In this document: positions 7,365-55,005 of the stretch, in pieces
Layout: every line of letters starts with the position of its first letter
How positions within the stretch are numbered: the stretch's first letter is position 1
From: Klebsiella pneumoniae
GTDB lineage: Bacteria; Pseudomonadota; Gammaproteobacteria; Ga0077536
DNA: 64,000 bases
Assembly (NCBI GenBank): GCA_945862315.1
Contig: CAMAXW010000005.1
Span: forward strand, 17,890 to 81,889
Reading direction: 5' to 3'
Notes under the pieces: generated by a model
Told to the model about the DNA's origin: nothing
The model's input: the letters and a program-made list of their open reading frames with translations, nothing else
Database searches by the model: none
Made by a program: the position numbers and the translations under genes

Positions 7365-7951
7365 ACAGGCTAACCCAGCGCCGGCGACAGGCAGCGGGCT
7401 TCACGCTACTGGAAGTGCTCATTGCGGTGGTGGTATTTGCCATTGGGCTGCTGGGGATTGCAGGGTTGCAGGTCGCTGGCCTGCGCTTCAGCCATGGGTC
7501 GCAACTGCGTTCTGTCGCCACCATGCAGGCGGAGAATATGGCCGACCACCTACGCGCCAATCAAGCGGGCGTGCTGGCCGGTGCCTATAACCAAACCAGC
7601 AGTTTACCGACCAGCTATTCGAAAGATTGCGACGCCGTCAATTGCACGTCTACTGAACTGGCGACCTTCCACCTCGCGACCTGGAATAGCCATGTTTCTA
7701 GCACCAAACCCAAGGAGTCCAACGCCGATGTGTTGCCTAGCGGCACCGGCACGGTGTGCATCGACTCCACGCCCAATGACGGTAGTGCCGGGAACTGGCG
7801 ATGCGACAACCTCGGCGTGGTGTATGCGATCAAAGTGGTCTGGACCGAGCGCACGACCGCACAAAATGACCTAGGCGATGCTAACGGTGACGGTGTCGCG
7901 GATGTCACGGACACCCGCCAGCAGTTACTGACACTGAGGGTTATTCCTTGA
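7361..7951 (+). CDS. pilV: Type IV pilus minor pilin PilV
   Basis: The N-terminus reads MNRLTQRRRQAAG/FTLLEVLIAVVV. It overlaps fimT by 4 nt, which suggests an operon. Confidence 0.8.
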   Translation: MNRLTQRRRQAAGFTLLEVLIAVVVFAIGLLGIAGLQVAGLRFSHGSQLRSVATMQAENMADHLRANQAGVLAGAYNQTSSLPTSYSKDCDAVNCTSTELATFHLATWNSHVSSTKPKESNADVLPSGTGTVCIDSTPNDGSAGNWRCDNLGVVYAIKVVWTERTTAQNDLGDANGDGVADVTDTRQQLLTLRVIP

Positions 7952-9021
7952 AAATAAATTATCCACCGGGCCGTCACCTGCAATCAGTCGGTCTTGGGCG
8001 GCGAGAGCATGGCGTTACGCTGGTCGAAATGATGGTCGCGCTGGTGGTAGGACTCATCTTGCTGGCGGGCATCGTGCAACTTTTTGCCAGCAACAAGCAG
8101 GCCTATCGGCTGCAGGAAGGCGCCAATGTGTTGAACGAAAACGCCCGGTTTGCGCTGGCGCAAATCCAGTACGACCTGCGCATGGCCGATCACTGGGGTG
8201 GCGTTGAAGCCAGCGAGGTCACGCTGCTAAGCGGCTTGGATAGCGTCACCAGCAACTGCGCCGGGACCGCCGCGGCCATCGTCGCGACGGGTCTTTATGG
8301 CTTTGACGGCACCGCGGCGTCGCCGCTCGCCTGTATTCCTGCCACCGACTATGTCGCCAATTCGGACATCCTGGTAGTGCGCTATGCCGATGCGCTCCGC
8401 AAGGCTTCCGGCAAGTTGGCAACCAACGATTTTTACCTGCGCAGCGCCATCGGTCGGCGGGCAATGATTTTCCAAGGCAAGACTAAAGCGAGTTTACCCT
8501 CGGACTTAGTGTCCGCCACGCCGACCCAAACCGATGCTTACGCGGAGTCCCCAGACGCGGCCAACTACCCTTTCCACTCGGTGGTTTATTTTCTGCGGCC
8601 CTGCGCCTCGCAAGACCGCGGCACCGCGGGCGTGTGCGATGCCGCGGATGACACCATCCCCACCTTGGCACGGCTAACCCTGCGCGGCACAAGCTTGGTG
8701 GAGGAAGACGTCATCGCCGGCGTGGAACAGCTGCAACTAAGCTACGGGGTGGACCTCAACGCGGACCTCGTACCCGATATCTACCGACGCGCTACCGACA
8801 TCACGACCAATAACGAATGGGCGAAGGTGGTGGACGTCAAGCTAAGCCTGTTAATTCGCAATGCCGAGCGCGATACCAGCTATACGGACACCACGACCTA
8901 CCAACTTTTTGGCGGCGTGAACGGTGCGCCAGTGAGTTACACCGTCCCCACCAACGCGCAGCAATTCCGGCGCAAGGTTTATAACGCCGCGGTCCAAGTC
9001 CGCAATATGACGCGTAGCTAA
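7948..9021 (+). CDS. pilW: Type IV pilus assembly protein PilW
   Basis: The N-terminus reads ...REHG/VTLVEMMVALVVGLIL, a prepilin-like sequence. It overlaps pilV by 4 nt. Confidence 0.75.
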   Translation: MKINYPPGRHLQSVGLGRREHGVTLVEMMVALVVGLILLAGIVQLFASNKQAYRLQEGANVLNENARFALAQIQYDLRMADHWGGVEASEVTLLSGLDSVTSNCAGTAAAIVATGLYGFDGTAASPLACIPATDYVANSDILVVRYADALRKASGKLATNDFYLRSAIGRRAMIFQGKTKASLPSDLVSATPTQTDAYAESPDAANYPFHSVVYFLRPCASQDRGTAGVCDAADDTIPTLARLTLRGTSLVEEDVIAGVEQLQLSYGVDLNADLVPDIYRRATDITTNNEWAKVVDVKLSLLIRNAERDTSYTDTTTYQLFGGVNGAPVSYTVPTNAQQFRRKVYNAAVQVRNMTRS

Positions 9022-9027
9022 GCAACT

Positions 9028-9654
9028 ATGAACCCACAACATCCTTCCAAATTTAGTCCGCAGGCAGGGGTGGCGCTCATCATGGCGCTGGTGTTGCTGC
9101 TGGTCATGACCATGGTGGCTGTGGTGGCCATGCGCTCCACTACCCTAGATCTCAAAATGACCACCAACAATACGCAGACCCGACGCGCCTTTCAGGGCTC
9201 TGACGGCGCGCGGGACGTCATAACACCCGTGCTCGCATCGCACGTCTTCTACCACGGTTGGCCTACCTCGCTAACCGGTGGCACGGTGGCCGCCAGCGCG
9301 AGTTTCACCATTCCTCAGGGACTCACCGTGCGGAACGCGGCGCAGCGTTTGGACCTAGCGCAAAACGGGACGTACACGCGTTTCAGTGGCAGCCCCAATT
9401 CTGACCTCAGCTTCAAAGACGATGTGAATAGCAATGGCACGATGGACCCTGATGACGTGAACGCCGAATTGTGGGTCACCCGGATCGGCGCCTTGCCCGC
9501 GGCGGGCAGCAACATGGGTTCCAACGCGGCGGATCAGGGTGCGGGTGGGGGGGGCGCCAGCAAGTACATTTTGTTTGATTTACGCTCCGACGGTCGCGCC
9601 GTCGGCAACGCGCAAGCGCGCACCGGGGCCGATTACCGCGCGCTGATTCGTTGA
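9028..9654 (+). CDS. pilX: Type IV pilus assembly protein PilX
   Basis: The N-terminus reads MNPQHPSKFSPQAGVALIMALVLLLVMTMVAVVAMRSTTLDLKMTTN, typical of a PilX N-terminal domain. Confidence 0.7.
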   Translation: MNPQHPSKFSPQAGVALIMALVLLLVMTMVAVVAMRSTTLDLKMTTNNTQTRRAFQGSDGARDVITPVLASHVFYHGWPTSLTGGTVAASASFTIPQGLTVRNAAQRLDLAQNGTYTRFSGSPNSDLSFKDDVNSNGTMDPDDVNAELWVTRIGALPAAGSNMGSNAADQGAGGGGASKYILFDLRSDGRAVGNAQARTGADYRALIR

Positions 9655-9658
9655 ACCG

Positions 9659-9773
9659 CCCACGTAGAACGCGCGTTAGTACCCGCGTAGAACGCCCGAA
9701 ATTGCCCGCGTAGAACGCCCGACATTGCCCGCGTAGAACGCCCGAAATTGCCCGCGTAGAACGCCCGACATTG
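9659..9773. repeat. Five head-to-tail copies of a 23-bp unit (CCCGCGTAGAACGCCCGAMATTG; the first copy is degenerate). They lie between pilX and pilY1.
   Basis: Units at 9659-9681 (degenerate), 9682-9704, 9705-9727, 9728-9750 and 9751-9773. They alternate AAATTG and ACATTG tails. The pilY1 ATG is 14 nt downstream. Confidence 0.9.
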
Positions 9774-9786
9774 GAGTACCAAGAGC

Positions 9787-12700
9787 ATGAAAATTAGCAA
9801 AACCTGCACGGGTTTTTTACACGGCCTAGCGCTGAGCATGGCCTTGCTGCCTGCGCTGTGGAGCGCCGGGGCACAGGCTGCGGCGTCTAATTTGTCGGGG
9901 CGATTGATGGCGCAATTCGTGGCCGCCCCCATTCTGACGGCGCAGTCCGTCCCACCGCTGGTGATGCTTTCCATGTCGCTAGACCACCAGTACTGGCAGA
10001 AGTCCTACAACGACTATACCGACCTCAACGGCGATGGCGTGGTCGAACGCAGCTATCTGGATAGCTTTGAGTACTACGGTTATTTTCACGCCGAGCGCTG
10101 CTACACCTATAGCGACACCAATAAGGTGTTCACCGCCGTAGGGGTTGCCGCGGGCACTAATAATCACTATTGCGAAGGTGCACTCAGTACGGCGTGGAGC
10201 GGCAATTTCCTCAACTGGGTCGCAATGGCCCGCATGGACGTCGTGCGTAAAATTCTGTACGGCGGCCAGCGCTCTACTGATACCGCCACCCAAACCATTC
10301 TCGAACGCACCTTCCTCCCCGGGGACGCCCATAGCTTTGCCAAGTATTACAACGGCGCGGACATCGCAAAGCTCACGCCGTATGACTCGCTAAGAACGGA
10401 CACCCTCAACGGTGGCAACAATAACGGCGTTGACAATAGCGACGAAGGCATTAGCTTCTGCAATATTTCTTTCGCGGCAAGCGGGAATTCGCAGACCTCC
10501 ACGGCACTGCCCTTGATGCGGGTGGCCAAGGGTAATTTCTCCTTGTGGAACGCCAACGAGCGGCGCCAATGCAGTTGGCAGGACGAGTTTGGCAACAATA
10601 GCGATAGCAATGTGTCCAGTGAGTCTGGCATTTTTGCCAGTGCCGGCGATCCCCCAGATGCCTCCGCCTTAAAAACGCCGAGCAGCAACCGCGACCACGT
10701 GGTGCGCGTAGAAGTTTGCGCAGCAACTTACTTTGACGAAAATCGCGACCTAGAGAACTGCGCAGACTACGGCGCAAACCGCAAACCCGAAGGCCTGTTG
10801 CAAACCTACGGGCTTACGGGGCTGATGCAGTTTGGCCTGCTGACCGGCAGCTATCAAAAAAACCTCTCCGGCGGCGCCCTACGCAAGCGCATTGCCACGC
10901 TGAACGATGAGATCAACACCACTGATGGGACTTTCAAAACCCTCTCAGCCTCCACGCCGGGCATCATTAAAACCCTCAACGCGGTGCGAATTTTCGGTTA
11001 TGGGTACACCAACGGCACGTATCTGTCTGGCGATGGCGGCGACGATTGCACCTTTCTACTGACCGACATTCGCACCGAGGGTGGCGGGCCGGGAGAAGGC
11101 AAATGCGCGAGTTGGGGCAATCCGATGTCGGAAATCTATCTCGAGGCCATCCGTTATTTTGCCTCAACCACGCGTGCGGCCACCAGCGCGTTTAACGCCG
11201 ACGACAGCACGTACATCACTAATTTGGCGCGCGATACCAACTGGGCAGCACCGCTCACGACCACCAATGCCTGCGCATCTCTGAGCACCATTGTGTTTAA
11301 TGCCAGCGTGTCTTCTTACGATGAAGACCAGACCAACCCCTCACCCTTGACCAGCAGCACCGCTGCAGCGCTCACGAAAACGGTGGGCGATGGCGAGGGC
11401 ATTACAGGCAACAACTATTTCATTGGTAGGAACGGCAGCCTTAGCGATGAATTTTGTACCGCCAAACCGCTCAGTGGGGCTAACGGCTTGGGCGACGCTT
11501 TAGGTCTGTGCCCGGAAGCCCCCACCTTGCGCGGCTCCTACCATATGGCAGGCCTAGCGCACTGGGCGCATACCAACGACATCTCCACGGCGCTCTCCGG
11601 GGTGCAAACAGTTCGAACTTTTGCCGTGGCACTGCAAACCGGCACACCCGTCATCCAAGTGCCCGTCACGGGCGGTGTGGTTAAGATTCTGCCCGCCTAC
11701 CGGCTACGGAAAGGTGGCAATAACACTAATGAATCAAGCAACGTCCCGGCCAACGATGGCGGCGGCACCCTGGTGGACTTCAAGGTAGTCCGCCCCCATA
11801 CAGAAGTTGTAAGCGCGTCCAATCTCACCGCCGCGACTAACACCGGTTTCTTTAATGCCAAGTTCTACGTCAACTGGGAAGACTCCGAACAGGGCGGGGA
11901 CTTTGACCAAGATATGTGGGGCACTATCGAGTATCTGGTTAATCAAAACGTAACACCGGCTACGGTCACCATCACCACCAAAGCGGTTGCCCAATCCACC
12001 ATCACCGGGCAGCTATTTGGTTTTGTGACCAACGGCACCACGCAAGATGGCTTCCACGCCTACTCGGGCATTCTAGGCGCCAACTACTACGCCAGCACCG
12101 GCTTCGATCCCTCCGGAGTGAAGGGTTGCAACAACTGCCGGGCACTCTCTGAGACGGGTGGCCAACAAGGAGCGCAGTCCTACACCTTCACGGTAAAAAC
12201 CGGCAGCAACGCGAACCTCCTAGAATCCCCGTTGTATTACGCCGCCAAGTGGGGCGGCTTTGAGGACTCCGACGCCAATAAAACCCCCAAAATCGCGGCG
12301 GCTCCCAGCGACACGCGAGAATGGGATGCTGATGGCGATGGCATTCCGGATACCTTTTTCTTTGTGAGCGACCCAGGTCTGCTGGAAGCCACCCTACGCA
12401 CGGTGTTTAACAGCATTCTGGAACGGGTGTCCTCCGGTACCGCAGCGGCCGTCGTGGCCAATGAGCAGAAGGGTAATGGCGCTATTTTTCAAGCGCTATA
12501 CGACCCGGAAAAAAAGGACGCTGATGGCAATACGGCGCGCTGGATAGGCACTTTGCAGGCCTTGTTTGTGGATTCCCATGGGCTTATTCGTGAAGACGGC
12601 AACGCGGATGGCAAGTTAGATGACTACGCCACTGATAAAGTACTGCGTTTGGAATTCGACGATGGCGCCAGCACCGCCGCCGAAGAACGCCGGACCAAAG

Positions 12701-14961
12701 CCGTTCGCTACACCCCGGTGACACCCAACGCTACCAACCCCGACACCACCGATTTGGCACAGTTCACACCCGAAGCGCCAATTGAACTCTCGGCAGTGAA
12801 CACCCTTTGGAATGCGCGTAAAAATCTCTCCGCGTTAAATAACACCAGCATCACCACGCAGCGCACCTACAGTGCCACCGCGGATACGGGGCGCTATATT
12901 TTTACGTGGTTGGATGGCAGTGGCACGAGCACGCCCAATAACTTAGTGGCTAGCGCAGAAGTAGTGCCTTTTGTTGCGAGCAGTATCACCGCCGCAAACT
13001 ACTACTGGCTGGACTATTTCAACACCTCCGACACCAGCGCCAACAAATACACCGGGGCGCGGCGACTGGTGGACTGGGTGCGTGGGAAAGAAAGCGTCTC
13101 AACCGAATTCCGTAGCCGGCTGTTGGACTACGATGGGCTGTCCGGCTCTGGTGGCGTGGCCGTCATGCGTCTGGGCGATATTATCAATTCCACCCCGGTC
13201 TCGGTGAGCGCGCCCTTCGCCAACTTTGACCAATCGGCACTGGATCCCTCTTATGCCACCTTCCGTGCCCTTTATAGCCAGCGCCGCCAAATGGTTTACG
13301 TGGGCTCCAACGATGGGATGATCCATGCGTTTAACGCCGGCTTCTACAATGCAGATGATCAACAATTTCAACTAGCACCCACGAGCGGCAGCACGCTCAC
13401 CCGTCACCCGCTCGGCAGCGAAATTTGGGCCTATGTGCCCAAGAACGCGCTACCTCATTTGCAGTGGATGGCGCGCCCCGATTACTCCCACGTTTACACC
13501 GTAGATTTACCGCTGCGGGTGTTTGACGTAAAAAGCTTCCCCGCCGATAGCACCCATCCCGGCGGCTGGGGCACGATATTAGTGGCTGGCATGCGTTTCG
13601 GCGGCGGTACCGACACCACCGGCATCTCAGTGGATGTGGGTGCCGATGGTGCGACCACCGCGAACGTCACCACCAAATCGGCCTATGTGGTGTTAGACAT
13701 CACCAATCCAGAAGTCGCGCCAACGCTGCTGGCCGAACTAAGCCCCACCAACTTGCAGTTCTCAACCTCCATTCCACAGGTGGCGGCGTTTGGCGACCCT
13801 TCCGGCACCACGGCCGGCAAGTGGTATTTGGTGTTCGGCTCAGGCCCTACCGATTTTGCCAACGCCCAGTACGCCTCCGGCAGCGGTAATACCAAAGCTC
13901 GGCTGTTTGTATACGACTTGGCCAATTTGGGGACGGCATCCAGTTTGGCGGCCTCGCCCGCCAACCTGAAATATCAGAATACCCCACCCGCAACCCAGAC
14001 CTTCGCGATGCCAGACAACAACGTCTTTGTCGGCGATCCCGTCAGCACGGATTTCGACATCGACATGAAGGACGAGGCAATTTATTTCGGCACGGTGGGG
14101 CCGCTGGTGGCGGCAGGCGCCACGCCGCCCAGCACCACAGGGACCCAGGGCAGCCTGTTCCGGATGTTGCTCAACGAGAACTCCAGTCCGGGCACTTGGA
14201 CCGGCCCCACGCGCCTGCTGTCCAATCTCAACCAGCCCTTTGTGGGACAACCAGCCGTCACCATCGACAGCAAAAACCGGCGGTGGGTGCTGGCCGCTAC
14301 CGGGCGGCTGTTCGTCAACGGCGACAAATCAACCCGCGACCAGCAGACCCTCTACGGCATTATTGACACCGCCTTTAGCGGATCGACCAAGCCGGCGGTT
14401 ATCAGCGATTTGGTGGATGTCTCGGCGGCCCAAGTATTCTCCAACGACACCGCGACCGGTGTGACACTGGCAACAGGTAGCGACACCGATGGTAACGGCG
14501 CCACCTCCACCTTGGAGCTGCGCAACGCGATAGCCACCGCGGGCGGCTGGCGCAAGAACTTGACCATCACCACCGCCAGCCCGGCGGAACGCAGCAGCAG
14601 CCGCCTCACGCTCTTCGGCGGCATTGTGTTTGGCTCCATGTTCACCCCCAGCACAGATCTATGTTCATCTGATGGCACTAGCCGCTTACTGGGCTTGGAC
14701 TTCACTACCGGCGCACCCCCGATACTAGGCGTCTTTGATTGTGCTAACTGCAACGACCCCACAGTGCCGCTGCCGGAAAGCCTGTCACAGGGCGGCGGCT
14801 ATTCCTCTAGCGCGAGCGTGCACTTTGGTGAGCAAACCATCGAAGGGCGGGTCACGGTAATTACCCAAGACTCGCGTGGTGAACTGGAGGCCAGTCAAGT
14901 CAACACGAGTAGCGGCAACCCGGCCAGCGAAATATCATGGCGGGAGTCCCGAGGTGACTAA
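9787..14961 (+). CDS. pilY1: Type IV pilus tip adhesin and biogenesis factor PilY1 (PilC family), unusually large at 1724 aa
   Basis: Signal peptide followed by a huge Thr/Ser/Gly/Asn-rich protein. The C-terminal PilY1 beta-propeller hallmark is ...VYVGSNDGMIHAFNAGFYN... The gene sits between pilX and pilE. Confidence 0.8.
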   Translation: MKISKTCTGFLHGLALSMALLPALWSAGAQAAASNLSGRLMAQFVAAPILTAQSVPPLVMLSMSLDHQYWQKSYNDYTDLNGDGVVERSYLDSFEYYGYFHAERCYTYSDTNKVFTAVGVAAGTNNHYCEGALSTAWSGNFLNWVAMARMDVVRKILYGGQRSTDTATQTILERTFLPGDAHSFAKYYNGADIAKLTPYDSLRTDTLNGGNNNGVDNSDEGISFCNISFAASGNSQTSTALPLMRVAKGNFSLWNANERRQCSWQDEFGNNSDSNVSSESGIFASAGDPPDASALKTPSSNRDHVVRVEVCAATYFDENRDLENCADYGANRKPEGLLQTYGLTGLMQFGLLTGSYQKNLSGGALRKRIATLNDEINTTDGTFKTLSASTPGIIKTLNAVRIFGYGYTNGTYLSGDGGDDCTFLLTDIRTEGGGPGEGKCASWGNPMSEIYLEAIRYFASTTRAATSAFNADDSTYITNLARDTNWAAPLTTTNACASLSTIVFNASVSSYDEDQTNPSPLTSSTAAALTKTVGDGEGITGNNYFIGRNGSLSDEFCTAKPLSGANGLGDALGLCPEAPTLRGSYHMAGLAHWAHTNDISTALSGVQTVRTFAVALQTGTPVIQVPVTGGVVKILPAYRLRKGGNNTNESSNVPANDGGGTLVDFKVVRPHTEVVSASNLTAATNTGFFNAKFYVNWEDSEQGGDFDQDMWGTIEYLVNQNVTPATVTITTKAVAQSTITGQLFGFVTNGTTQDGFHAYSGILGANYYASTGFDPSGVKGCNNCRALSETGGQQGAQSYTFTVKTGSNANLLESPLYYAAKWGGFEDSDANKTPKIAAAPSDTREWDADGDGIPDTFFFVSDPGLLEATLRTVFNSILERVSSGTAAAVVANEQKGNGAIFQALYDPEKKDADGNTARWIGTLQALFVDSHGLIREDGNADGKLDDYATDKVLRLEFDDGASTAAEERRTKAVRYTPVTPNATNPDTTDLAQFTPEAPIELSAVNTLWNARKNLSALNNTSITTQRTYSATADTGRYIFTWLDGSGTSTPNNLVASAEVVPFVASSITAANYYWLDYFNTSDTSANKYTGARRLVDWVRGKESVSTEFRSRLLDYDGLSGSGGVAVMRLGDIINSTPVSVSAPFANFDQSALDPSYATFRALYSQRRQMVYVGSNDGMIHAFNAGFYNADDQQFQLAPTSGSTLTRHPLGSEIWAYVPKNALPHLQWMARPDYSHVYTVDLPLRVFDVKSFPADSTHPGGWGTILVAGMRFGGGTDTTGISVDVGADGATTANVTTKSAYVVLDITNPEVAPTLLAELSPTNLQFSTSIPQVAAFGDPSGTTAGKWYLVFGSGPTDFANAQYASGSGNTKARLFVYDLANLGTASSLAASPANLKYQNTPPATQTFAMPDNNVFVGDPVSTDFDIDMKDEAIYFGTVGPLVAAGATPPSTTGTQGSLFRMLLNENSSPGTWTGPTRLLSNLNQPFVGQPAVTIDSKNRRWVLAATGRLFVNGDKSTRDQQTLYGIIDTAFSGSTKPAVISDLVDVSAAQVFSNDTATGVTLATGSDTDGNGATSTLELRNAIATAGGWRKNLTITTASPAERSSSRLTLFGGIVFGSMFTPSTDLCSSDGTSRLLGLDFTTGAPPILGVFDCANCNDPTVPLPESLSQGGGYSSSASVHFGEQTIEGRVTVITQDSRGELEASQVNTSSGNPASEISWRESRGD

Positions 14962-46473: not shown

Positions 46474-49035
46474 ATGCAGGGATCTTTTTGGAAATCCGAC
46501 CGTTTCTTCGGTGCACTGATCTCGATCGGTCTCATCGCTGCGTGGTTGCTAAACCTGCCGATGCTGGAGCGCCTCGAAGGCGACGCCTACGACCTTGGGG
46601 TTCGGCTGTCCTCCCGTGAGGCCAGCGCCCGAAAGGATCAAATTGTGATCGTGGCAATCGACGATCAAAGCATTCAAAGCATCGGGCGGTGGCCGTGGCC
46701 GCGCGACGTGCACGCCAGTCTGATCAAAAAACTGACTGAAGCCGGCGCTAAAACCATCGCCTCAACGGTGTTCTACTCAGAACCGCAGGTCGACCCGGGT
46801 CTAAAATGGCTGCAACAACTGCGCGACCAACTTGCTGGTGCGGTGGTCAACGGTGCCAAAGGCGACCCCCAACAAACGCTCGACGCGGCCTTGGCAGCAC
46901 TGGACACAGATGCCATTTTAGGGCGAACCCTCCATGAAACCGGCAACACGGTCTTGGGGATGCAGTTCGAACCCGGTGAAGTGCTGGGCAACCCCGACGC
47001 GCCACTGCCGGCGTTTGTCACCCGCTTTGCTATTCCAACTGAAAATATCAGCGACCCCGCCGGGACCAATGAAGAATTCCCGATCACCACCGTCAAGGCA
47101 GCCCCGCCCGTGGCGCTAGTGGGCGATTCCGCAGCCGGACTAGGCGCGCTCATCAACCCGCTCGACAACGACGGCACGCTGCGCCGTGAACCCCTCGCGG
47201 TGCGTTATTACGACCAGTACTTCCCCTCGCTGTCGTTGGCCACCGCGGCGCGCAGCCTCAATTTAGGGGTCAAAGACATCCGCGTTCAGCGCGGCGATTC
47301 GGTACAACTGGGTGGGCTGTCCATCAAGACCGATGCAGCCTCGCTGATGAACACGTTTTACTACGGTGAGCACGACGGACGCGCGCCGTTCCCTGTTTAT
47401 TCCTTCTACAACGTCATCCAAGGCGAAATCGCCATGGACAGCTTCAAGGGTAAAATTGTGCTGGTGGGGGCGACGGCCTTTGGCGTCGGTTCGGATCTCC
47501 GCACGCCGCTGGGCGAGGCCAAAGGTCCCGTGCTGATTTTGGCACACCAAATCGCGAGCATTTTGAACCAGCATTTCTTTGTGCAGCCGAACTGGGCTTT
47601 TGGCGTCGAACTGCTGGCCATCCTGCTCGTGGCCGCCTACCTCATCGCACTGCTGCCGTTGCTTAAGGCCGGCGCCGGCGCGCTGACCAGCGCGGGCATT
47701 TTGCTGGCGCTACTGGCAACAGAACTCGGCGTCATGATCGGCACCGCCAACTGGATCCGCCTCGCCACTGCCGCGGCCCTGCTGGTCGTCGGCCATCTGC
47801 TGCTCACGACCAAACGCTATCTAGCGACGGAACGTGGTGCGCTCGACAGCGATATAAAAGCCGCCCTGTCTAACCGCCAACTGGCGCTGCAATTCCAGCA
47901 AAAAGGTGAACTCGACAACGCCTTCGAATACTTCCGTCGCTGCCCGGTCGATGAACAGGTTTTAGAGTCCTTGTATGCCTTAGCTACTGACTTTCAGGTT
48001 AAACGTAAACCCGAGAAATCCATGCTCGTCTACGAGTACATGCACGCTAAGAACCCTAAGTTTCGCGACATCCAGTCCAAAATCAATCAAGCCCGCCACC
48101 AAATGGAAACCCAGGCGCTCTATCCTAGCGGTCGACCGTTGGGCGCCGGCGGGGCTGCGCAAACGGCCGTACTGGCGGGGACGGGCGGCGCTAGCCAAAC
48201 CATGCTGGGTCGCTACGCGGTGGAACGCGAACTCGGTAAGGGCGCGATGGGGGTTGTTTATCTGGGTAAAGACCCCAAGATCAACCGGGTGGTGGCGATC
48301 AAAACCATGGCGCTGTCCCAAGAATTTGAAGCGGATGAACTGGAAGAGGTGAAAGCGCGCTTCTTCCGCGAAGCCGAAACCGCTGGACGCCTCCAGCATC
48401 CCAATATCGTGACCATTTACGATGCGGGCGAAGAACACGACCTCGCGTACATCGCGATGGAGTTTCTGGAAGGTCACGACCTCTCTCGTTACACCAAATT
48501 GGACACCCTGCTACCGTTGTCGGTGGTGCTGGGCATTATCTTCAAATCGGCCCTGGCGCTGGATTATGCCCACAAGGCCAATGTGGTCCATCGCGACATC
48601 AAGCCCGCCAACATCATGTTTGAGCCCACCAAAAAAACCGTGAAAATCACTGACTTTGGCATCGCTCGTATCACTGACTCCAGCAGAACCAAAACCGGCA
48701 TGGTGCTCGGCACTCCCTCCTACATGTCGCCCGAGCAGCTCTCGGGTAAAAAAGTGGATGGCCGCTCTGATTTATTTTCACTCGGGGTGATGCTGTACCA
48801 AATGGTCATTGGCAAGCTGCCTTTCCAAGGTGAGTCGATGGCCACGCTGATGTACAAAATCGCCAACGAACCCCATAAGGAACTCGCCGAACTCAAACCC
48901 GAACTGGCGGCGCAGCGGCCCTGTCTATCGGAAATCATCAACCGGTCGTTGCAGAAAGATGTCAACGCGCGGTACCAAACCGGCGCCGACATGGCCCGAG
49001 ATCTCCAAAACTGCGCCAAGCAGGTCACCGGCTAA
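46474..49035 (+). CDS. CHASE2-sensor Ser/Thr protein kinase (Hanks type)
   Basis: The N-terminal CHASE2 region reads ...IVIVAIDDQSIQSIGRWPWPRDVHASLI... A transmembrane block follows. The C-terminal kinase has an intact Gly-loop (LGKGAMGVVY), VAIK, HRDIKPANI and DFG. Confidence 0.85.
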   Translation: MQGSFWKSDRFFGALISIGLIAAWLLNLPMLERLEGDAYDLGVRLSSREASARKDQIVIVAIDDQSIQSIGRWPWPRDVHASLIKKLTEAGAKTIASTVFYSEPQVDPGLKWLQQLRDQLAGAVVNGAKGDPQQTLDAALAALDTDAILGRTLHETGNTVLGMQFEPGEVLGNPDAPLPAFVTRFAIPTENISDPAGTNEEFPITTVKAAPPVALVGDSAAGLGALINPLDNDGTLRREPLAVRYYDQYFPSLSLATAARSLNLGVKDIRVQRGDSVQLGGLSIKTDAASLMNTFYYGEHDGRAPFPVYSFYNVIQGEIAMDSFKGKIVLVGATAFGVGSDLRTPLGEAKGPVLILAHQIASILNQHFFVQPNWAFGVELLAILLVAAYLIALLPLLKAGAGALTSAGILLALLATELGVMIGTANWIRLATAAALLVVGHLLLTTKRYLATERGALDSDIKAALSNRQLALQFQQKGELDNAFEYFRRCPVDEQVLESLYALATDFQVKRKPEKSMLVYEYMHAKNPKFRDIQSKINQARHQMETQALYPSGRPLGAGGAAQTAVLAGTGGASQTMLGRYAVERELGKGAMGVVYLGKDPKINRVVAIKTMALSQEFEADELEEVKARFFREAETAGRLQHPNIVTIYDAGEEHDLAYIAMEFLEGHDLSRYTKLDTLLPLSVVLGIIFKSALALDYAHKANVVHRDIKPANIMFEPTKKTVKITDFGIARITDSSRTKTGMVLGTPSYMSPEQLSGKKVDGRSDLFSLGVMLYQMVIGKLPFQGESMATLMYKIANEPHKELAELKPELAAQRPCLSEIINRSLQKDVNARYQTGADMARDLQNCAKQVTG

Positions 49036-49050
49036 AGCCGGCACCTGACC

Positions 49051-49881
49051 ATGCTAAGCAGTAACGTGGAGTTCGCTATCGTCTCTGACCCCGGCCTCAA
49101 ACGCACGCATAACGAAGACAGTGCCCTCACCGACCGGAGCTTAGGGCTAGCGCTAATTGCCGATGGCATGGGGGGCTACAAATCGGGTGAAGTAGCCAGC
49201 GCGATTGCTGCCCAGTGCGTGCTGGAGGGGATTCGTGAAAACCACAACAAGCACCACTTCGTGCGCGGCACCGACGAGCAAAAAACATCCCAAGAAGGGC
49301 TGCTGATTCGCAAAGTCATATGTGCGGCTAATCAACGTATTTTTCGCACCGCGCATGCGTTGCCGCAGTGTCATGGAATGGGTACGACGATTGTCGCGGC
49401 GTTGTTTAGTGAGAACCACGTGACGCTGGCCCACGTGGGTGACTCGCGCATCTATCGGTTTCGTAATAACCAAATGTCACAGGTCACTAACGACCATTCC
49501 CTGCTGCAAGAACTCATCGACAGAGGCTTCTACACGCCGGAGGACGCGCGGGCCAACACGCCCAAAAACCTTGTCACACGAGCGCTGGGAATAGACGAAC
49601 AAGTAGCAGTAGAAGTGACGGAACACGCGACAGAAGAGGGGGACATCTTCCTGCTCTGTTCGGATGGCTTGAATGATATGGTGGAAGATGAAGAAATTAG
49701 TTTAACCCTCGGGAAATATAGTGCTAATCTTCTGACGTGCGCAAAAGAACTAGTCCGCCTCGCCAACCAAAATGGCGGTAAAGACAACGTATCTGTCGTG
49801 CTCGCTCGACCACGCGCACCCACTAACGAAGGTGTAAGTCTTCTCGCCAGACTCAAAAAGCTCTTGTTTAGAGCCAGCTGA
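49051..49881 (+). CDS. PP2C-family Ser/Thr phosphatase
   Basis: Carries the ADGMGG, LCSDGL and GGKDNVSVVL motifs. Confidence 0.85.
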   Translation: MLSSNVEFAIVSDPGLKRTHNEDSALTDRSLGLALIADGMGGYKSGEVASAIAAQCVLEGIRENHNKHHFVRGTDEQKTSQEGLLIRKVICAANQRIFRTAHALPQCHGMGTTIVAALFSENHVTLAHVGDSRIYRFRNNQMSQVTNDHSLLQELIDRGFYTPEDARANTPKNLVTRALGIDEQVAVEVTEHATEEGDIFLLCSDGLNDMVEDEEISLTLGKYSANLLTCAKELVRLANQNGGKDNVSVVLARPRAPTNEGVSLLARLKKLLFRAS

Positions 49882-49890
49882 CAGGAAACG

Positions 49891-50607
49891 ATGATGGGCA
49901 AACTCGTACTCAGCTTGAATGGCGTCGTGCACGGAGAGTTCCAGCTCAAAAAAGAGCGCATGACGGTGGGTCGTAAACCCGACAACGAGTTACAAATCGA
50001 TAACCTCGCGGTCAGCGGCAAACACGCCCTCATCATCACCATTCTCGACGACTCCTTCCTCGAAGACCTCGGCAGCACCAACGGGACTTACGTCAACGGG
50101 AAGCTCATCAAAAAGCATGCGTTGCGTGATGGCGACATCATTGGCATTGGCAAACACGAGCTCAAGTACGTCAACGAGCATGCCACTGCGGATGACGAAG
50201 AATTCGAAAAAACCATGATTATTCGACCCGGCTCGGCCAGCGCTGCCGTGGCCGCCGCCCGGTCTGTCGACAACGCGCCAACCGCCGCGCCGGCACCGGC
50301 ACCAGCCCCGACGGGGTTTGGTGGTGGTCTTCCCTTAGGCAAAATTAAAGTGCTGAACGGACCCATTGCTGGCAAGCAACTAGAACTCACCAAGGCGCTG
50401 ATCACGCTCGGCAAACCTAACGTGCAGGTGGCCGTTATCTCCCGCCGCCCACAGGGATATTTCTTGACCCACATCGAGGGTGACGGCAAAAACATGAATT
50501 TCCCGATCGTCAACGGACGGACGATGGGTGCGCAGGCCTACGCGTTGAAAACCGGGGATATCATCGAACTGGCGGGCGTTAAGATGGAATTCTCAATCAT
50601 TCGCTAA
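49891..50607 (+). CDS. FHA-domain protein with an N-terminal FHA domain and a second FHA-like C-terminal half
   Basis: Sequence ...TVGRKPDNELQIDNLAVSGKHALI...TNGTYVNGKLI... A second, similar beta-rich half sits in the C-terminus. Confidence 0.75.
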   Translation: MMGKLVLSLNGVVHGEFQLKKERMTVGRKPDNELQIDNLAVSGKHALIITILDDSFLEDLGSTNGTYVNGKLIKKHALRDGDIIGIGKHELKYVNEHATADDEEFEKTMIIRPGSASAAVAAARSVDNAPTAAPAPAPAPTGFGGGLPLGKIKVLNGPIAGKQLELTKALITLGKPNVQVAVISRRPQGYFLTHIEGDGKNMNFPIVNGRTMGAQAYALKTGDIIELAGVKMEFSIIR

Positions 50608-50636
50608 GCCGCTAGCAGTTCGCTGCAGCCGGCCAT

Positions 50637-52886
50637 CTACTCCGACAGCAGCGAATGAACGCCATCCCAGCCTACGGGGGGTGGGGAGCGCCGAAACTGC
50701 CGGATGCGTTCGATATAGACCTTGTAGAGCGCGGGCGAGCGCGAGGTCCTGGCCAAATTCACAAAACTCACCTCCGCCACATCCCACGCGCTCGTCCGAT
50801 ACAAACGCAGCGCTTCGCGGTGAAGTTTTAATTCGTCTTTCCATTTAGCGTCCAACTCGTCACGCCGACCGATGGGTTCATAAATGGGCATGGGTAGCGG
50901 GTGACCCGCCACCAACACGAGATCAATCTCACGATAAGCGTACTCCGGCATTGCGTCGCGCGTGTGCTCTCCAAGCAAAATCTCCACGCCGTAACGCTGT
51001 GTCAGCGCCTCCAAACGCATGCCTAGATCGGCTGCCGTGCCCAGCACGGTGTACGTCCTGCGGAATTCCGAACCCAGATTACCCACAGTCATCGTGTCGG
51101 TATTGATGCCAATGCCCACTTGCAGCGTTGGCCACCCGCGGGCCGCAAATTGCTGATTCAGCGTCGCGAGCTGCGAACGCATCGCGAGCCCGGCGCGTAG
51201 CGCGTTCAGGGCATGGTCTGAGGCTGGCAGCGGTGCGCCCCAAAACGCCATGACGGCAGGCCCTAGATATTTGTCGATGGTGCCGCGGTGCTCATGAATG
51301 GCACGTGTCATGGGGGTCAAAAACTGGTTGAGAAAATCTGCGAGCTCTTGGGGTGATAGCCCTGCGGTGAGCGCCGCAAACCCCCGCACCCGCAAAAACA
51401 AAATACTCATCTCGCAGCGGGTGGGTGCTAGCGAGTAGGCCGTGGGCTGCAGCGCCATTTCAGCCACCAGTTCCGGCGGCAGGTAGAGCCCAAACAGGCT
51501 GGACAACTGGCGCTTGCCGCGCGTCTCAATAAAGTAGCCATACGACATATTGAGCATAAACAGGACGCTCAACAGGATTAAACCGCCCGCCAGTGGCAGC
51601 ACTAAATTTCCCGCCACCCAGACCACAAGATTCAAGCCCAAATAAGCGGCCAGCAGCGCGAGCGTTAGGCCGGTGGCCAACAGTGGTGTTAGCAGAGGCG
51701 CTGCGACAGCCAGCACCACACCAAACAACAAAAGTAGCAGGCCTTCAGCGGCCAGCGTGTAGGCGGGCAGTTGCTTGATCGTGCCATCCAGAATGCCCGC
51801 GATGAGGTTGGCGTGGACTTCAACGCCGGGATAGGCCTCACCCACCGGCGTTGCGCGCAGATCCAACAAGCCCGGGGCCGTAGTGCCCACCAGCACTACG
51901 GCGTTTTTTAACAACTGTTTATCGACCTTACCGTTGAGCACATCGGTGGCCGAGAGATAGGTAAAACTACCGCGATAGCCACGATAAGGCACCAGCGCCT
52001 GAACACTACGGTCCACCGGCACCGCCGCGCGCCCGATGGTCAACCACTCAAGCCCCGGATAACCCCGGCCGCCGAACAACGGCTCCCCAAACCCCGGCGT
52101 GACCGTTTGTTTATCGCCCAGTATCTGGCGCGCCATTTCCAGCGACAGCGAGGCGTAATAGGCGCCCTCATAATTAATCAACATGGGAACCCGCCGCACC
52201 ATGCCGTCCGGATCGGGTTGCGGATTGAAATGGCCGCCGCCGTGCGCACTCGCCTGCAGCGCTGGCAAATTACCGCCGTAGCCATTGGCCTGCCGAAAGC
52301 CAATGTTCTTGCCCGTAAAAGTGCCTTTAACGAAGGTAGGTTGAGGCAGCGCGCCACTGCGCGTGGCAACCGCCGGGGCTGCCGCGAAATTGAAGTAATA
52401 CCCCAGCACCACCGGGTAGTGCGCAATCGCCTCGGCAAACTGCCGGTCGTAGTTCAGCCGGGGACGCACTTTTTCTAGCGCCTGCCTAAAACCAACGTCC
52501 CCCCGTAGTTCATTGTTGGCGAGTGCGTCCAAGACCTCCAAACCCGAACTGTTATCCGGCTCCGCAAACACGATATCGAAACCGAGTAGACCAATCTGGT
52601 ACTCATCAAAAAGGCGCCGCACGAGCACCGCCAGCTTATCGCGGCTCCACGGCCAGCGACCTTCAGCGGCGAGGCTTTTTTCGTCGATGTCGACAATCAG
52701 GATGCGGGGATCTGGGCGCTTGGGCATCGTGAGCAACAAGCGCTGGTCGTAGGCGAGGTTATCGAGTTGGTCGATCACTCCCAGGTGCAGCCAATCCGCC
52801 GCGTGGGCAACAAAGAGCAGCACCACCAACAGGCCTAACCCAATTTGAATTTTGGCTGCGTCCGCCCGCTTGAGCAGATTTCTCAT
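50637..52886 (-). CDS. CHASE2-sensor protein with a C-terminal class III nucleotidyl cyclase homology domain. The metal-binding Asp residues appear substituted, so it may be a pseudo-cyclase.
   Basis: The CHASE2 region reads ...ILIVDIDEKSLAAEGRWPWSRDKLAVLV... The cyclase homology region reads SILFLRVRGFAALT ... TIDKYLGPAVMAFWGAP ... FRRTYTVLGTAADLGMRLE. Confidence 0.7.
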   Translation of the reverse strand: MRNLLKRADAAKIQIGLGLLVVLLFVAHAADWLHLGVIDQLDNLAYDQRLLLTMPKRPDPRILIVDIDEKSLAAEGRWPWSRDKLAVLVRRLFDEYQIGLLGFDIVFAEPDNSSGLEVLDALANNELRGDVGFRQALEKVRPRLNYDRQFAEAIAHYPVVLGYYFNFAAAPAVATRSGALPQPTFVKGTFTGKNIGFRQANGYGGNLPALQASAHGGGHFNPQPDPDGMVRRVPMLINYEGAYYASLSLEMARQILGDKQTVTPGFGEPLFGGRGYPGLEWLTIGRAAVPVDRSVQALVPYRGYRGSFTYLSATDVLNGKVDKQLLKNAVVLVGTTAPGLLDLRATPVGEAYPGVEVHANLIAGILDGTIKQLPAYTLAAEGLLLLLFGVVLAVAAPLLTPLLATGLTLALLAAYLGLNLVVWVAGNLVLPLAGGLILLSVLFMLNMSYGYFIETRGKRQLSSLFGLYLPPELVAEMALQPTAYSLAPTRCEMSILFLRVRGFAALTAGLSPQELADFLNQFLTPMTRAIHEHRGTIDKYLGPAVMAFWGAPLPASDHALNALRAGLAMRSQLATLNQQFAARGWPTLQVGIGINTDTMTVGNLGSEFRRTYTVLGTAADLGMRLEALTQRYGVEILLGEHTRDAMPEYAYREIDLVLVAGHPLPMPIYEPIGRRDELDAKWKDELKLHREALRLYRTSAWDVAEVSFVNLARTSRSPALYKVYIERIRQFRRSPPPVGWDGVHSLLSE

Positions 52887-52967: not shown

Positions 52968-53288
52968 TCAGTTGCGAGGTGGCGGGGTCGCATGAATCGA
53001 AAAAACTTTATCCAGTCGCGCGAGGGTCAACACACTCATGACGGGTTCGCTGACGGCGATGAGGAAGAATTGCAAACCCTTCTTTTTGGCCGCCTGAAAA
53101 CCTTCCACCAAACCGGCGATGCCCGAGCTGTCGATATAGCTCACCTGCGCCAGATTAACGCACGTATGCTGGCCCAAACGGAGCTGATCGAGGATGGTCT
53201 TGCGCACCGCAGGCGCACACGAGAGGTCGATTTCGCCCTCCAGATGCACCACGGCAAACCCACCTTCCATTATGACTTTGGCGGACAT
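52968..53288 (-). CDS. STAS-domain anti-sigma factor antagonist
   Basis: 106 aa. It contains the putative phospho-acceptor Ser in the stretch ...VSYIDSSGIAGLVEG... Confidence 0.8.
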   Translation of the reverse strand: MSAKVIMEGGFAVVHLEGEIDLSCAPAVRKTILDQLRLGQHTCVNLAQVSYIDSSGIAGLVEGFQAAKKKGLQFFLIAVSEPVMSVLTLARLDKVFSIHATPPPRN

Positions 53289-53325: not shown

Positions 53326-53745
53326 CTACCACTCGCGTTGCGTGCTGATTGGTTTACTCATCTGTAAAAAATTGCCCGCGCCCTCGGGCAGGTTGCCATA
53401 TTCATATCGTTCCATCACCGCGCGGATGAAGTGCGTGCCCAGTCCGCCGGGGCGCAGTTCGGCGAGCCGCCGGGGTCGGATGTTCGGCACCACCACCGGG
53501 GGCGCGAAATCCGTCACGCGGACCTCGAGATCGCCGCCCACCTGTTTCATCTCGAGCACTATTTCCCCAGAGGCATCACCCAAGTAGGCATGCTGCATCA
53601 CGTTTGCGCAGGCCTCATTGACCGCTAGTACCACCTCGGACACCCATTGCGTGCCGCAGCCTAAGCTGGCCATGGCGGCCCGTACACAACGCCGCATATC
53701 GCAGAGTTTGTCCGGATCGGCAGCAAAGCGCAGTTCTAGCAACAC
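53326..53745 (-). CDS. RsbW/BtrW-like anti-sigma regulatory Ser kinase (HATPase_c)
   Basis: Sequence ...VVLAVNEACANVMQHAY...GEIVLEMKQVGGDLEVRVTDF...GGLGTHFI... The start is a GTG. Confidence 0.75.
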   Translation of the reverse strand: MLLELRFAADPDKLCDMRRCVRAAMASLGCGTQWVSEVVLAVNEACANVMQHAYLGDASGEIVLEMKQVGGDLEVRVTDFAPPVVVPNIRPRRLAELRPGGLGTHFIRAVMERYEYGNLPEGAGNFLQMSKPISTQREW

Positions 53746-53917: not shown

Positions 53918-54343
53918 TCAGCGCAACGCACGCAACGCCACTAAGTAGGCGGCTTCATCGGGCAGACGGCCCGCCGACTGGGCGCGCCAGAGTTCCTCAG
54001 CCAAGCACTCAATCATGCGATGCTCCGCCGCGTGTGGCCGATCGTCGTTGGCGAGCCGCTGCGCATGGAGCAGCGCGATCCCTGCGGGACGGTCAGCCGC
54101 AACTTGCTCGCGCAACGCGATATGCAGCCCCATGTGCAAAAAAGGATTGTGCTCGGGTGCCGCACTTCCATAATCACCCGCCAGACCCTGCTGCCCAGCA
54201 TCGAGCAAGGCATGGTATTCCGGATGCAGCGCAATCACCTCGGCAACCAGACGCTCCATTGGCTCCAGTGGCTGGCCCTGACGGTGTTTCGCCCACACCT
54301 CGAAAAAGAATTGGCGGGCCGAATCGCGGGATTGCACCAACAT
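53918..54343 (-). CDS. DUF1841-family conserved hypothetical protein
   Basis: Sequence MLVQSRDSARQFFFEVWAKHRQGQPLEPMERLVAEVIALHPEYHALL...NPFLHMGLHIALREQ... I chose the internal start at 54343 to avoid a 70-nt overlap with nth. The family call is from memory. Confidence 0.45.
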   Translation of the reverse strand: MLVQSRDSARQFFFEVWAKHRQGQPLEPMERLVAEVIALHPEYHALLDAGQQGLAGDYGSAAPEHNPFLHMGLHIALREQVAADRPAGIALLHAQRLANDDRPHAAEHRMIECLAEELWRAQSAGRLPDEAAYLVALRALR

Positions 54344-54348
54344 AGGGG

Positions 54349-55005
54349 CTACACCGGCACCCGGCGGGTGTTGGTCAGGGTTTTGTCCGGCCATTCGCAC
54401 AAATCGGCCAGCACACACTCACCACAGCGCGGCGCGCGCGCAGTGCAGGTATAGCGCCCCTGCAGAATCAGCCAATTGTGGGCGTGCAGGAGATAGCGCG
54501 GCGGGATGATCGCGAGCAAAGCCTTTTCCACCGCCAGTGGCGTCTTTCCCGGGGCGATTCCAAGGCGATTGCCGACCCGAAAAATATGGGTATCTACCGC
54601 CATCGTGGGTTCGCCAAAGGCCACATTGAGCACGACGTTGGCGGTCTTGCGGCCCACCCCTGGCAATGCCTCGAGCGCCGCCCGCGCCGCGGGCACTTCC
54701 CCGTTGTGGCGGTCGAGCAAGAGCTGGCAGGTGGAGAGAATATTGCGCGCCTTCGCATTAAATAAACCAATGCGCTTAATGTGCTGCTTCACGCCCGCCT
54801 CGCCTAGCGCCAGCATCTGGCGCGGCGTATTGGCTTGCGCGAACAACGTCAGGGTTGCCTTATTGACGCTGATATCGGTCGCTTGCGCCGACAACATCAC
54901 CGCAATGAGGAGCTCGAAGGGCGAGTCATAGTGCAGCTCCGTCACCGGGGTCGGGTTGAGCGCAGCCAGACGCTTGAACACGGTGCCCACCTGCCGTCGG
55001 TTCAT
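54349..55005 (-). CDS. nth: Endonuclease III
   Basis: Carries the HhH-GPD motif LPGVGRKTANVVLNVAFG and the C-terminal cluster CTARAPRCGECVLADLC. Confidence 0.9.
   Translation of the reverse strand: MNRRQVGTVFKRLAALNPTPVTELHYDSPFELLIAVMLSAQATDISVNKATLTLFAQANTPRQMLALGEAGVKQHIKRIGLFNAKARNILSTCQLLLDRHNGEVPAARAALEALPGVGRKTANVVLNVAFGEPTMAVDTHIFRVGNRLGIAPGKTPLAVEKALLAIIPPRYLLHAHNWLILQGRYTCTARAPRCGECVLADLCEWPDKTLTNTRRVPV

Follow-up and report, generated by a model that had tools for sequence, protein, structure and literature searches.

A CHASE2-linked class III cyclase homologue with a dismantled active site, a probable pseudo-cyclase beside a kinase/PP2C/FHA gene module

The gene and its active site

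We analysed a 64,000-nucleotide stretch of DNA (the window; positions 17,890 to 81,889 of contig CAMAXW010000005.1, assembly GCA_945862315.1), concentrating on a minus-strand gene at 50637..52886 in which a first-pass annotation, made from the sequence alone, had proposed a sensor-coupled but catalytically dead cyclase homology domain (CHD). The gene is a single 749-codon open reading frame (ORF), and its full-length homologues measure 745-751 amino acids. It stands at the end of the gene order metG-rnfB-nth-DUF1841-RsbW-like-STAS-cyclase and faces genes for an FHA protein, a PP2C phosphatase and a CHASE2 kinase. Its parts and the residues that matter for catalysis are listed below, with helix boundaries taken from an AlphaFold2 (AF2) model and with L002 standing for the locus of a degenerate sister lineage.

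50637..52886, minus strand: the whole gene, encoding a CHASE2 sensor, transmembrane helices, a degenerate class III CHD and a helical tail; 749 amino acids, stop codon at 50637-50639
52800..52853, minus strand: N-terminal transmembrane helix, residues 12-29, a hydrophobic helix in the AF2 model
51714..52799, minus strand: CHASE2 sensor, residues 30-391 (PF05226, 207 bits, E=3.5e-61)
51483..51758, minus strand: three C-terminal transmembrane helices, residues 377-468, joining the sensor to the cytoplasmic part (AF2 helices 377-398, 401-425 and 433-468)
50862..51422, minus strand: degenerate CHD (pseudo-cyclase), residues 489-675 (PF00211, phmmer and Foldseek)
50640..50849, minus strand: C-terminal three-helix extension conserved in the family, residues 680-749 (AF2 helices 680-697, 701-714 and 719-733)
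51390..51392, minus strand: R499 (CGG) at the first metal-binding Asp position; Gln (CAG) in L002
51258..51260, minus strand: P543 (CCT) at the second metal-binding Asp position; Ala (GCG) in L002
51027..51029, minus strand: D620 (GAT) at the transition-state Asn position; Asn kept in L002
50901..50909, minus strand: A660-G-H662 in place of the K-G-K of the VKGK motif, which reads VAGH (K660A, K662H)
51015..51272, minus strand: span of the retained residues K539 (51270-51272), T613 (51048-51050) and R624 (51015-51017)

The match to PF05226 together with the flanking transmembrane helices of the model identifies a CHASE2 sensor protein, and an N-terminal transmembrane helix is the usual CHASE2 topology. 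PF00211 (Guanylate_cyc) matches residues 492-636 with 44.7 bits (cut-off 21.9, E=1.4e-11), and by both profile and fold the domain belongs to the class III cyclases; an NCBIfam search of the 749-residue protein assigned no family. The AF2 model, built on an alignment of 119 family sequences, has a mean pLDDT (predicted local distance difference test) of 86.3 and consists of an N-terminal helix, a mixed alpha/beta extracytoplasmic domain, long helices, an alpha/beta cyclase-type domain and the tail. Foldseek relates the modelled CHD to Pseudomonas aeruginosa CyaB (3r5g) and Synechocystis Cya2 (2w01), with TM-scores of ~0.83, and also to Spirulina CyaC, the scores being ~0.8 for all three relative to the target.

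The catalytic positions were located by a phmmer search against all PDB chains, which aligned the CHD to Cya2 (2w01/6fht), CyaB (3r5g) and CyaC (1wc0), and by reading the CHD columns in a 121-sequence family alignment composed of the query and its 120 closest homologues; 270 homologues in all were used for these positions. The four structure-anchored alignments, with E-values from 1.5e-31 (6fht/2w01) to 1.5e-19, agree with the family alignment on the catalytic columns. They place 'ilFLRVRGFaal' opposite 'ilTSDLRGFtst' or 'FSDIRGF', GTIDKYLGPAVMAFWGAP opposite GTIDKFMGDGILVLFGAP, and YTVLGTAADLGMRLE opposite YGVVGAQVNLTYRIE. The first-pass annotation had read the first metal-binding Asp as Arg in LRVRGF (residues 498-503), the second as Pro in KYLGPA (539-544) and the transition-state block as LGTAAD (615-620), and had judged the surrounding scaffold conserved. 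Every motif that it quoted, including AVMAFWGAP and RLE, is present in the ORF, and the codons of R499, P543 and D620 are confirmed in the window DNA. R499 lies opposite Asp in all four phmmer alignments and in the family alignment, P543 lies opposite Asp in the structure-anchored and family alignments, and D620 lies opposite the transition-state Asn; these three columns hold D/D/N in 117-119 of the 121 aligned sequences. A shift in the original hand alignment could have produced such substitutions, and a proper profile alignment run as a check restored Asp at neither metal position.

The losses are broader than had been seen at first. In addition to the two metal ligands and the transition-state Asn, the query has lost the phosphate-loop Thr of the GFT motif (T504A) and both lysines of VKGK, so that the class III catalytic set is missing its metal Asp pair, its Asn, its GFT Thr and its VKGK lysines, and G597 of the CHD has become Asp. 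There is no alternative Asp or Glu within five residues of position 499, and near 543 only D538 is acidic, and it belongs to the GTIDKY motif, where canonical enzymes have it too. What remains is the Lys/Thr substrate pair of the class IIIb adenylate cyclase type (K539 and T613) and, of the transition-state pair, the Arg (R624). In class III cyclases the GFT loop and a KGK lysine contact the triphosphate, and VKGK supplies the Lys that binds the gamma-phosphate. If these roles hold here, most of the ATP-Mg binding apparatus is gone, beyond the two Asp. The proposal of a sensor-coupled, predicted catalytically dead CHD is thus supported by the CHASE2 domain and by the loss of both metal ligands.

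Orthology, distribution and rate of change

The gene order around the query recurs at L002 and at three loci with canonical cyclases, L006 (66% identical), L004 (64%) and L003 (60%), the one exception being an insertion between the STAS and cyclase genes in L003 and L004. The query is a positional orthologue, not a paralogue, and its catalytic residues were lost in place. The first metal site passes from GAC/GAT (Asp) to CAG (Gln, L002) and CGG (Arg, query), the second from GAC/GAT (Asp) to GCG (Ala, L002) and CCT (Pro, query), and the change of Asn to Asp at 620 is restricted to the query subclade. This codon alignment, in which no frameshift separates the query from its relatives, suggests a stepwise path of loss (Q to R, A to P, N to D); the ancestor shared with L002 had thus already lost both metal ligands, and the site went on decaying later. 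We rejected a compensated local frameshift as the source of LRVRGF, since the alignment is in frame and the paths are stepwise single-base ones. The loss is recent and limited to a single small clade within a family of adenylate cyclases that is otherwise canonical.

To describe homologues we used a signature of six residues (first metal Asp, Lys, second metal Asp, Thr, Asn, Arg), which in canonical form is D-K-D-T-N-R. The best 120 database proteins, at 54-99% identity, are all ~748 amino acids long and all combine CHASE2 with a cyclase domain; 117 of them read DKDTNR, the exceptions being P0001 (99% identical, RKPTDR), P0002 (78%, QKATNR) and P0058, which has Gly at the first site only. Among these 120, both metal Asp are gone only in the query clade and in the 78% identical sister. 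Expansion of two 90% clusters yielded 13 distinct sequences with 93.7-100% identity to the query, every one of them RKPTDR and one identical to it, as well as a second QKATNR sequence. The identical protein occurs on 10 metagenome contigs from several ENA assemblies and samples. DKDTNR and KGK are kept even in homologues that are only 26-53% identical, the 26% one coming from an Ignavibacteriaceae genome. The substitutions are real, reproducible and limited to a small clade, whose members are uncultured lake Gammaproteobacteria with closest relatives from Loclat and Lake Baikal.

Two irregular sequences were met among the homologues. P0134, from the query's 90% cluster, is a 216-residue fragment, 96% identical, that starts STVARFIGDAIMAFWGAPL, in which the second metal site has its canonical Asp. 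An assembly chimera joined at the conserved AFWGAP motif is the probable explanation, although the fragment could be a recombinant allele. At L008 (~4805-4830) a Rhodocyclaceae orthologue is broken into two frames at a run of nine G, possibly through a sequencing error or else because the tract is prone to slippage.

We then counted changes at invariant positions, defined as those conserved in at least 95% of the 117 canonical homologues. The query has changed 2 of 109 in residues 1-391, the CHASE2 region (107/109 kept), 4 of 28 in the membrane helices, 2 of 24 in the tail (taken as the block 661-749; 22/24 kept) and 21 of 87 in the CHD. P0002 has changed 25/87 in the CHD, and 14 changed positions are common to both. 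The losses common to the two degenerate lineages include D499, T504, S507, E508, D543, D617, V619, S623 and K660; position 660 is Ala in the query and Val in L002, and K662 has become His in both. Query and sister lineage also have in common the derived changes S434G, M438L and M442L in the transmembrane helices. Sensor, transmembrane helices and C-terminal helices are nevertheless conserved to the same degree as in active orthologues. In a Tajima relative-rate test of the query against canonical L006, with L003 as outgroup, the CHD shows 45 versus 7 unique changes (p=7e-8), ~6 times faster than the canonical orthologue, whereas CHASE2, with 19 versus 30, shows no significant difference; the CHD of L002 gives 54 versus 6 (p=1e-10). 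Between canonical orthologues the CHD is the best conserved part (75-81% identity versus 61-69% for CHASE2), whereas between the query and L002 it is the worst (63% versus 85%). Likewise, the ratio of nonsynonymous rates, dN(CHD)/dN(CHASE2), is 2.6-2.8 in the degenerate clade versus 0.45-0.63 in canonical pairs.

The accelerated domain is nevertheless under purifying selection. By the Nei-Gojobori method the ratio of nonsynonymous to synonymous rates (dN/dS) of the CHD is 0.183 against the 94% identical relative L001 and, as a rough value, 0.187 against the 78% identical L002; nonsynonymous differences (pN) are proportionally fewer than synonymous ones (pS) in both comparisons (Fisher test, p=3e-9 and 2e-18). 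CHASE2 gives 0.12-0.15 within the clade and the tail (661-749) 0.04 against L001, and the 749-codon ORF is intact in both degenerate lineages. Since the CHD has a dN/dS of ~0.18 within an intact ORF, it is a retained pseudo-cyclase and not a pseudogene; lost catalytic residues combined with purifying selection and an intact frame in diverged lineages are what marks a pseudoenzyme. We observed separately that pS against L001 is 0.20-0.36 in the 3' third of the gene (50637-51450), about twice that of the 5' two thirds (0.07-0.20). The rise also covers the strongly constrained tail, and it hints at recombination inside the gene between related strains.

Degeneration is not confined to this clade. 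We searched 1.84 billion cluster representatives exhaustively with HMMER; ~47,000 library proteins match at E<=1e-10, and the counts of recurrence rest on the 150 diverse relatives (35-52% identity) taken from this search. About 137 of the 150 keep DKDTNR. Of the ~146 representatives whose sequence spans the catalytic region, seven have degenerate core sites, and all seven are full-length: P0154 (QKATSQ), P0165 (GKATDK), P0158 (NRDSNR), P0200 (EGSAQQ), P0202 (DQGSQR), P0205 (NKDTNQ) and P0249 (SHETQW). Their nearest neighbours are mostly canonical (P0136 for P0154, at 55%; P0162 for P0202, at 47%; P0177 for P0205), and the losses are therefore largely independent; for the same reason we rejected, for most of the degenerate members, a common origin in a single old pseudo-cyclase clade, although P0158, P0165, P0249 and P0200 may be related to one another. 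The ratio of invariant positions retained in the CHD to those retained in CHASE2 is 0.65-0.96 in all seven, against a mean of 1.20 in the other 132 full-length representatives, where the few low outliers are disrupted sequences (for example P0199 and P0258). Pseudo-cyclases thus apparently arise repeatedly in this family, in ~5% of 50%-identity clusters as judged from their sequences.

The neighbouring module and other flanking genes

Downstream of the cyclase gene, and convergent with it, lie three genes of a signalling module, and upstream on its own strand lie two further genes, all identified by Pfam matches:

46474-49035, plus strand: CHASE2-Ser/Thr kinase
49051-49881, plus strand: PP2C phosphatase
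49891-50607, plus strand: FHA protein
52968-53288, minus strand: STAS protein, upstream of the cyclase gene
53326-53745, minus strand: RsbW-like HATPase_c_2 protein, upstream of the cyclase gene

The kinase, PP2C and FHA genes (46474..50607) and the cyclase gene form a set of four adjacent genes over 46474-52886. The kinase motifs GxGxxG, VAIK, HRD, DFG and SPE are intact, and all three module proteins beside the query are predicted from their sequences to be functional. Within the degenerate clade the module genes are the most conserved in the neighbourhood (kinase 92%, FHA protein 90%, with metG at 90%), and their adjacency to the cyclase is kept in L002, L003, L004 and L006. Around the degenerate P0154 and P0202 (L013, 3593-10280, and L015, 3764-10223) the genes run kinase, PP2C, FHA, CHASE2-cyclase in one direction, in an operon-like manner. 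Around the canonical P0136 and P0162 (L018, 1901-5838, and L021, 496-4328) PP2C, FHA and cyclase genes are co-directional, the gene that precedes PP2C being truncated or without annotation. One large branch of the family thus has its cyclase in a transmembrane signalling unit of four genes, which persists in at least three lineages after the cyclase has lost its chemistry.

Two of these loci carry further signalling genes. In L021 the gene 3' of canonical P0162 (4362-5153) matches both the metallo-beta-lactamase fold and class II cyclic AMP (cAMP) phosphodiesterases (PF02112), which fits genuine cAMP signalling there. In L015 a convergent FHA-EAL gene (10281-11423) follows the degenerate P0202 and suggests crosstalk with cyclic di-GMP (c-di-GMP).

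The STAS and RsbW-like genes are possibly co-transcribed with the cyclase gene, though this is uncertain. As obligate partners they were downgraded because of a STAS-to-cyclase distance of ~3.3 kb in both L003 and L004, a gap that in L004 holds ABC-transporter-like genes. In that region of L004 (4625-9949) the RsbW-like part forms the C-terminal end of a 558-residue ORF, and four further ORFs resemble, by eye, an MlaE/MlaF/MlaD-type ABC transporter and a lipoprotein; because such Mla-like ORFs separate the STAS and cyclase genes, the STAS protein may resemble MlaB and not belong to a partner-switching system. No cyclic-nucleotide-binding domain was found among the Pfam-scanned ORFs of the window (all those of at least 200 amino acids and a few neighbours), and a tblastn search of the 64-kb window with a canonical cyclase domain detected no second cyclase domain.

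Several features lie further off. The longest DUF1841 ORF (53918-54418, minus strand, 166 amino acids, GTG start) shares 70 bases with the end of the endonuclease III gene (54349-55005, minus strand); gene callers on identical contigs give DUF1841 as 141 amino acids, and its true start is probably downstream of the GTG. Between 23351 and 35566 are genes for a polyprenyl synthase, a squalene/phytoene synthase, a PNP_UDP_1 phosphorylase-family protein, an epimerase, a radical SAM protein with DUF3463, a DXP synthase, a GT2 glycosyltransferase, MlaC and MlaA, which we take to be a hopanoid biosynthesis and lipid-transport cluster. A type IV pilus minor-pilin cluster at 6720-14961 (plus strand) comprises GspH/FimU-like, PilW, PilX and PilY1-like proteins, the last with 1724 amino acids of which only ~250 match the PilY1 propeller. 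Finally, a 212-residue ORF at 184-822 (plus strand) matches no Pfam family at E<=0.001.

Proposed function, alternatives and relation to known systems

Taken as a whole, the evidence is probably best explained by a positional orthologue of a class IIIb CHASE2-linked adenylate cyclase in which the active site has been dismantled and which now serves as a non-catalytic receptor or scaffold in the module. By the established two-metal-ion mechanism (cited in PMC3961136), a homodimer of this protein would be unable to make cAMP or cyclic GMP (cGMP). Conservation suggests that the protein may remain a working CHASE2 receptor, as a protein without a role would not be expected to keep its sensor at 98% of invariant positions, and that the dead cyclase fold and helical tail may persist to mediate dimerisation or docking. 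Sensing must lead to some output, and with homodimer cyclisation gone that output would be something other than nucleotide cyclisation. From gene context it probably passes through the adjacent CHASE2-Ser/Thr kinase, PP2C and FHA proteins, and the pseudo-cyclase could be either a co-receptor or a scaffold whose binding depends on phosphorylation. The link to the module draws on its accompanying the cyclase family in many genomes and on its staying beside an independently degenerated cyclase in at least two other lineages. More tentatively, and with rather low confidence, we suggest that CHASE2-cyclases of the conserved four-gene unit may have a second, non-enzymatic role, pairing with the kinase as co-receptors or offering a phospho-dependent docking platform to the FHA protein.

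Several points weigh against the explanation that we prefer. The module is connected to the query by adjacency, and in the query's own lineage the genes are convergent and would not be co-transcribed; the distant members L005, L007, L009, L017, L019 and L020 are without the module and lie instead beside a FecR-domain gene, a GAF-HD gene or neither. The loss of activity is argued from sequence and mechanism, all sequences come from metagenome assemblies, and K539, T613 and R624 (with N620 in the sister) are kept, so that the protein might still contribute to a heterodimeric site. The alignment behind the AF2 model consists mostly of canonical homologues, so that the model supports a kept fold without proving it. 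As for selection, the dN/dS values against L002 are rough, with dS there near saturation (0.75-1.4), and the average of 0.18 for the CHD could be the mean of a core under constraint and a former active site that now evolves neutrally.

The retained residues are the starting point for an alternative that we consider unlikely, namely that the protein is the C2-like half of a heterodimeric cyclase, giving Lys, Thr and Arg to a site whose metal Asp come from a second cyclase elsewhere in the genome. That one subunit of a heterodimeric class III cyclase can be degenerate is well established, as in mammalian C1/C2, soluble guanylate cyclase and chytrid RGC/NeoR (PMC8815786); the three residues are kept in both degenerate lineages and N620 in L002, and the degenerate P0158 has a Response_reg-cyclase gene ~4 kb away. 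However, the C2 side is damaged as well. A complete set (Lys, Thr/Asp, Asn, Arg and phosphate-binding Lys) is broken in the query subclade by N620D and by loss of the KGK lysines in both lineages (K660A in the query, K660V in L002), and with 24-29% of invariant CHD positions changed, the survival of three residues is statistically unremarkable. The protein is also the orthologue of a homodimeric enzyme and has its own sensor and membrane anchor, and the absence of a second cyclase domain from the 64-kb window led us to reject a locally encoded partner.

It is quite improbable that the CHD is vestigial, in a gene drifting towards a pseudogene and important, if at all, for its CHASE2 and membrane parts alone. 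Such drift would agree with the strong acceleration of the CHD (45 versus 7 changes), with its being the least conserved part of the protein in the clade (63% identity) and with the loss of more catalytic residues after the first hits. It does not agree with a CHD dN/dS of 0.18, significantly below 1 in both the recent (94%) and the older (78%) comparison, with 66/87 invariant core positions kept, or with 181 CHD codons that contain no stop codon, frameshift or indel over ~37% amino-acid divergence. Moreover, the tail encoded 3' of the CHD, at a dN/dS of 0.04, means that translation through the CHD must be maintained.

Very little speaks for a still active nucleotidyl cyclase or transferase with a non-canonical metal site using D620 and D597. 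The query subclade has indeed gained acidic residues near the former site (N620D, G597D), but the sister lineage keeps the protein without these gains, and Pro at the second metal site together with the lost phosphate-loop Thr and KGK lysines would remove most triphosphate contacts. To our knowledge, no class III cyclase tested has stayed active once either metal Asp was mutated, which also argues against residual catalysis here. An inter-subunit salt bridge between R499 and D620 was considered as a coupled change and found weak, as P0165 has the Asn-to-Asp change with Gly at its first metal site. Finally, an artefact of sequencing, assembly or alignment, which the purely metagenomic data and the chimeric look of P0134 at AFWGAP might bring to mind, is effectively refuted by an identical protein on 10 contigs from several samples, 13 distinct sequences with the signature, in-frame codon changes and four concordant structure-anchored alignments.

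The closest known relatives in architecture are active enzymes. Cya2 (2w01) and the Sinorhizobium meliloti proteins CyaD1, CyaD2 and CyaK have, like the query, a transmembrane helix, CHASE2, three transmembrane helices and a cyclase domain, and the Cya2 catalytic domain is the query's best match among solved structures by sequence (E from 1e-28 to 1e-31) and by fold. These enzymes are active and have both metal Asp, whereas the query has neither and has lost further catalytic residues; Cya2 is, by its PDB title, a guanylate cyclase, whereas the query's family has the Lys/Thr pair typical of adenylate cyclases. CyaD1, CyaD2 and CyaK are CHASE2 cyclases that raise cAMP on a plant signal, and they show an increase in cAMP to be the normal response of CHASE2 receptors to an outside cue (PMC13001267). 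CyaB of P. aeruginosa (3r5g) and CyaC of Spirulina (1wc0) share the fold (TM-score ~0.8), 27-34% identity, the Lys/Thr pair and the Arg with the query, but differ in having other sensor domains and complete catalytic sites.

Degenerate members are known too. Mycobacterial Rv1359 and Mycobacterium smegmatis MSMEG_0545 have Gly and Arg, respectively, in place of the first metal Asp. Neither was judged capable of activity as a homodimer, yet both are regulated and so apparently functional; they have been suggested to be regulators, with DNA binding by Rv1359 cited (PMC3961136). MSMEG_0545 thus carries the same Asp-to-Arg change as R499 of the query. The mycobacterial proteins, however, are reported to have lost the first Asp only (and an Arg in Rv1359; PMC3961136), whereas the query has lost both, and they are not described as CHASE2-linked receptors, whereas the query is a transmembrane receptor with canonical direct orthologues. 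The degenerate halves of mammalian adenylate cyclase (C2), soluble guanylate cyclase and NeoR/RGC resemble the query in having no metal Asp while keeping base-recognition and Arg residues; unlike it, they retain both the Asn and the Lys that binds phosphate, and each has a dedicated partner to which it is fused or with which it is co-expressed, whereas in the query these residues are damaged and no partner is evident.

Two analogies come from other systems. LapD, FimX and PelD are receptors with degenerate GGDEF/EAL domains, in which an enzyme domain without catalysis is kept as a signalling or binding module. As in the query, a second-messenger enzyme domain has lost catalysis on a sensor protein, but fold and messenger are different and these proteins bind c-di-GMP, whereas the query CHD has no known or predicted ligand. 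Threonine phosphorylation modules of the PpkA-PppA-Fha1 type group the genes of a PP2C phosphatase, an FHA protein and a membrane Ser/Thr kinase whose sensor is extracytoplasmic, and these proteins control a machine encoded nearby. The query module has the same grouping of kinase, PP2C and FHA; here, however, the kinase sensor is CHASE2, the neighbour is a CHASE2 cyclase or pseudo-cyclase, and no type VI secretion genes are present.

Degenerate bacterial cyclase domains and pseudoenzymes are already recognised, and the finding is not a new principle. Our search of the open-access literature turned up no account of CHASE2-linked pseudo-cyclases, of their arising repeatedly or of a unit made up of kinase, PP2C, FHA and cyclase genes. 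Proteins of this family are named 'adenylate cyclase' or 'adenylate/guanylate cyclase domain-containing protein' in their sources, a name that is probably functionally wrong for ~5% of the family representatives. CHASE2 outputs are usually read straight from the attached enzyme domain, and CHASE2 signals are largely unknown, the main lead coming from S. meliloti (PMC13001267). Here orthologues in the same gene order split cleanly, most being complete cyclases and one young clade being without the chemistry but with sensor, membrane part, tail and module kept, and they offer a well-controlled comparison for the role of a non-cyclising cyclase fold and for CHASE2 outputs other than cAMP. If the more tentative suggestion of a second, non-enzymatic role is true, lineages can because of that role repeatedly (at least three times in the context of the module) drop cAMP synthesis and yet keep the receptor, and the query clade would be a natural separation-of-function mutant that exposes a cAMP-independent CHASE2 output.

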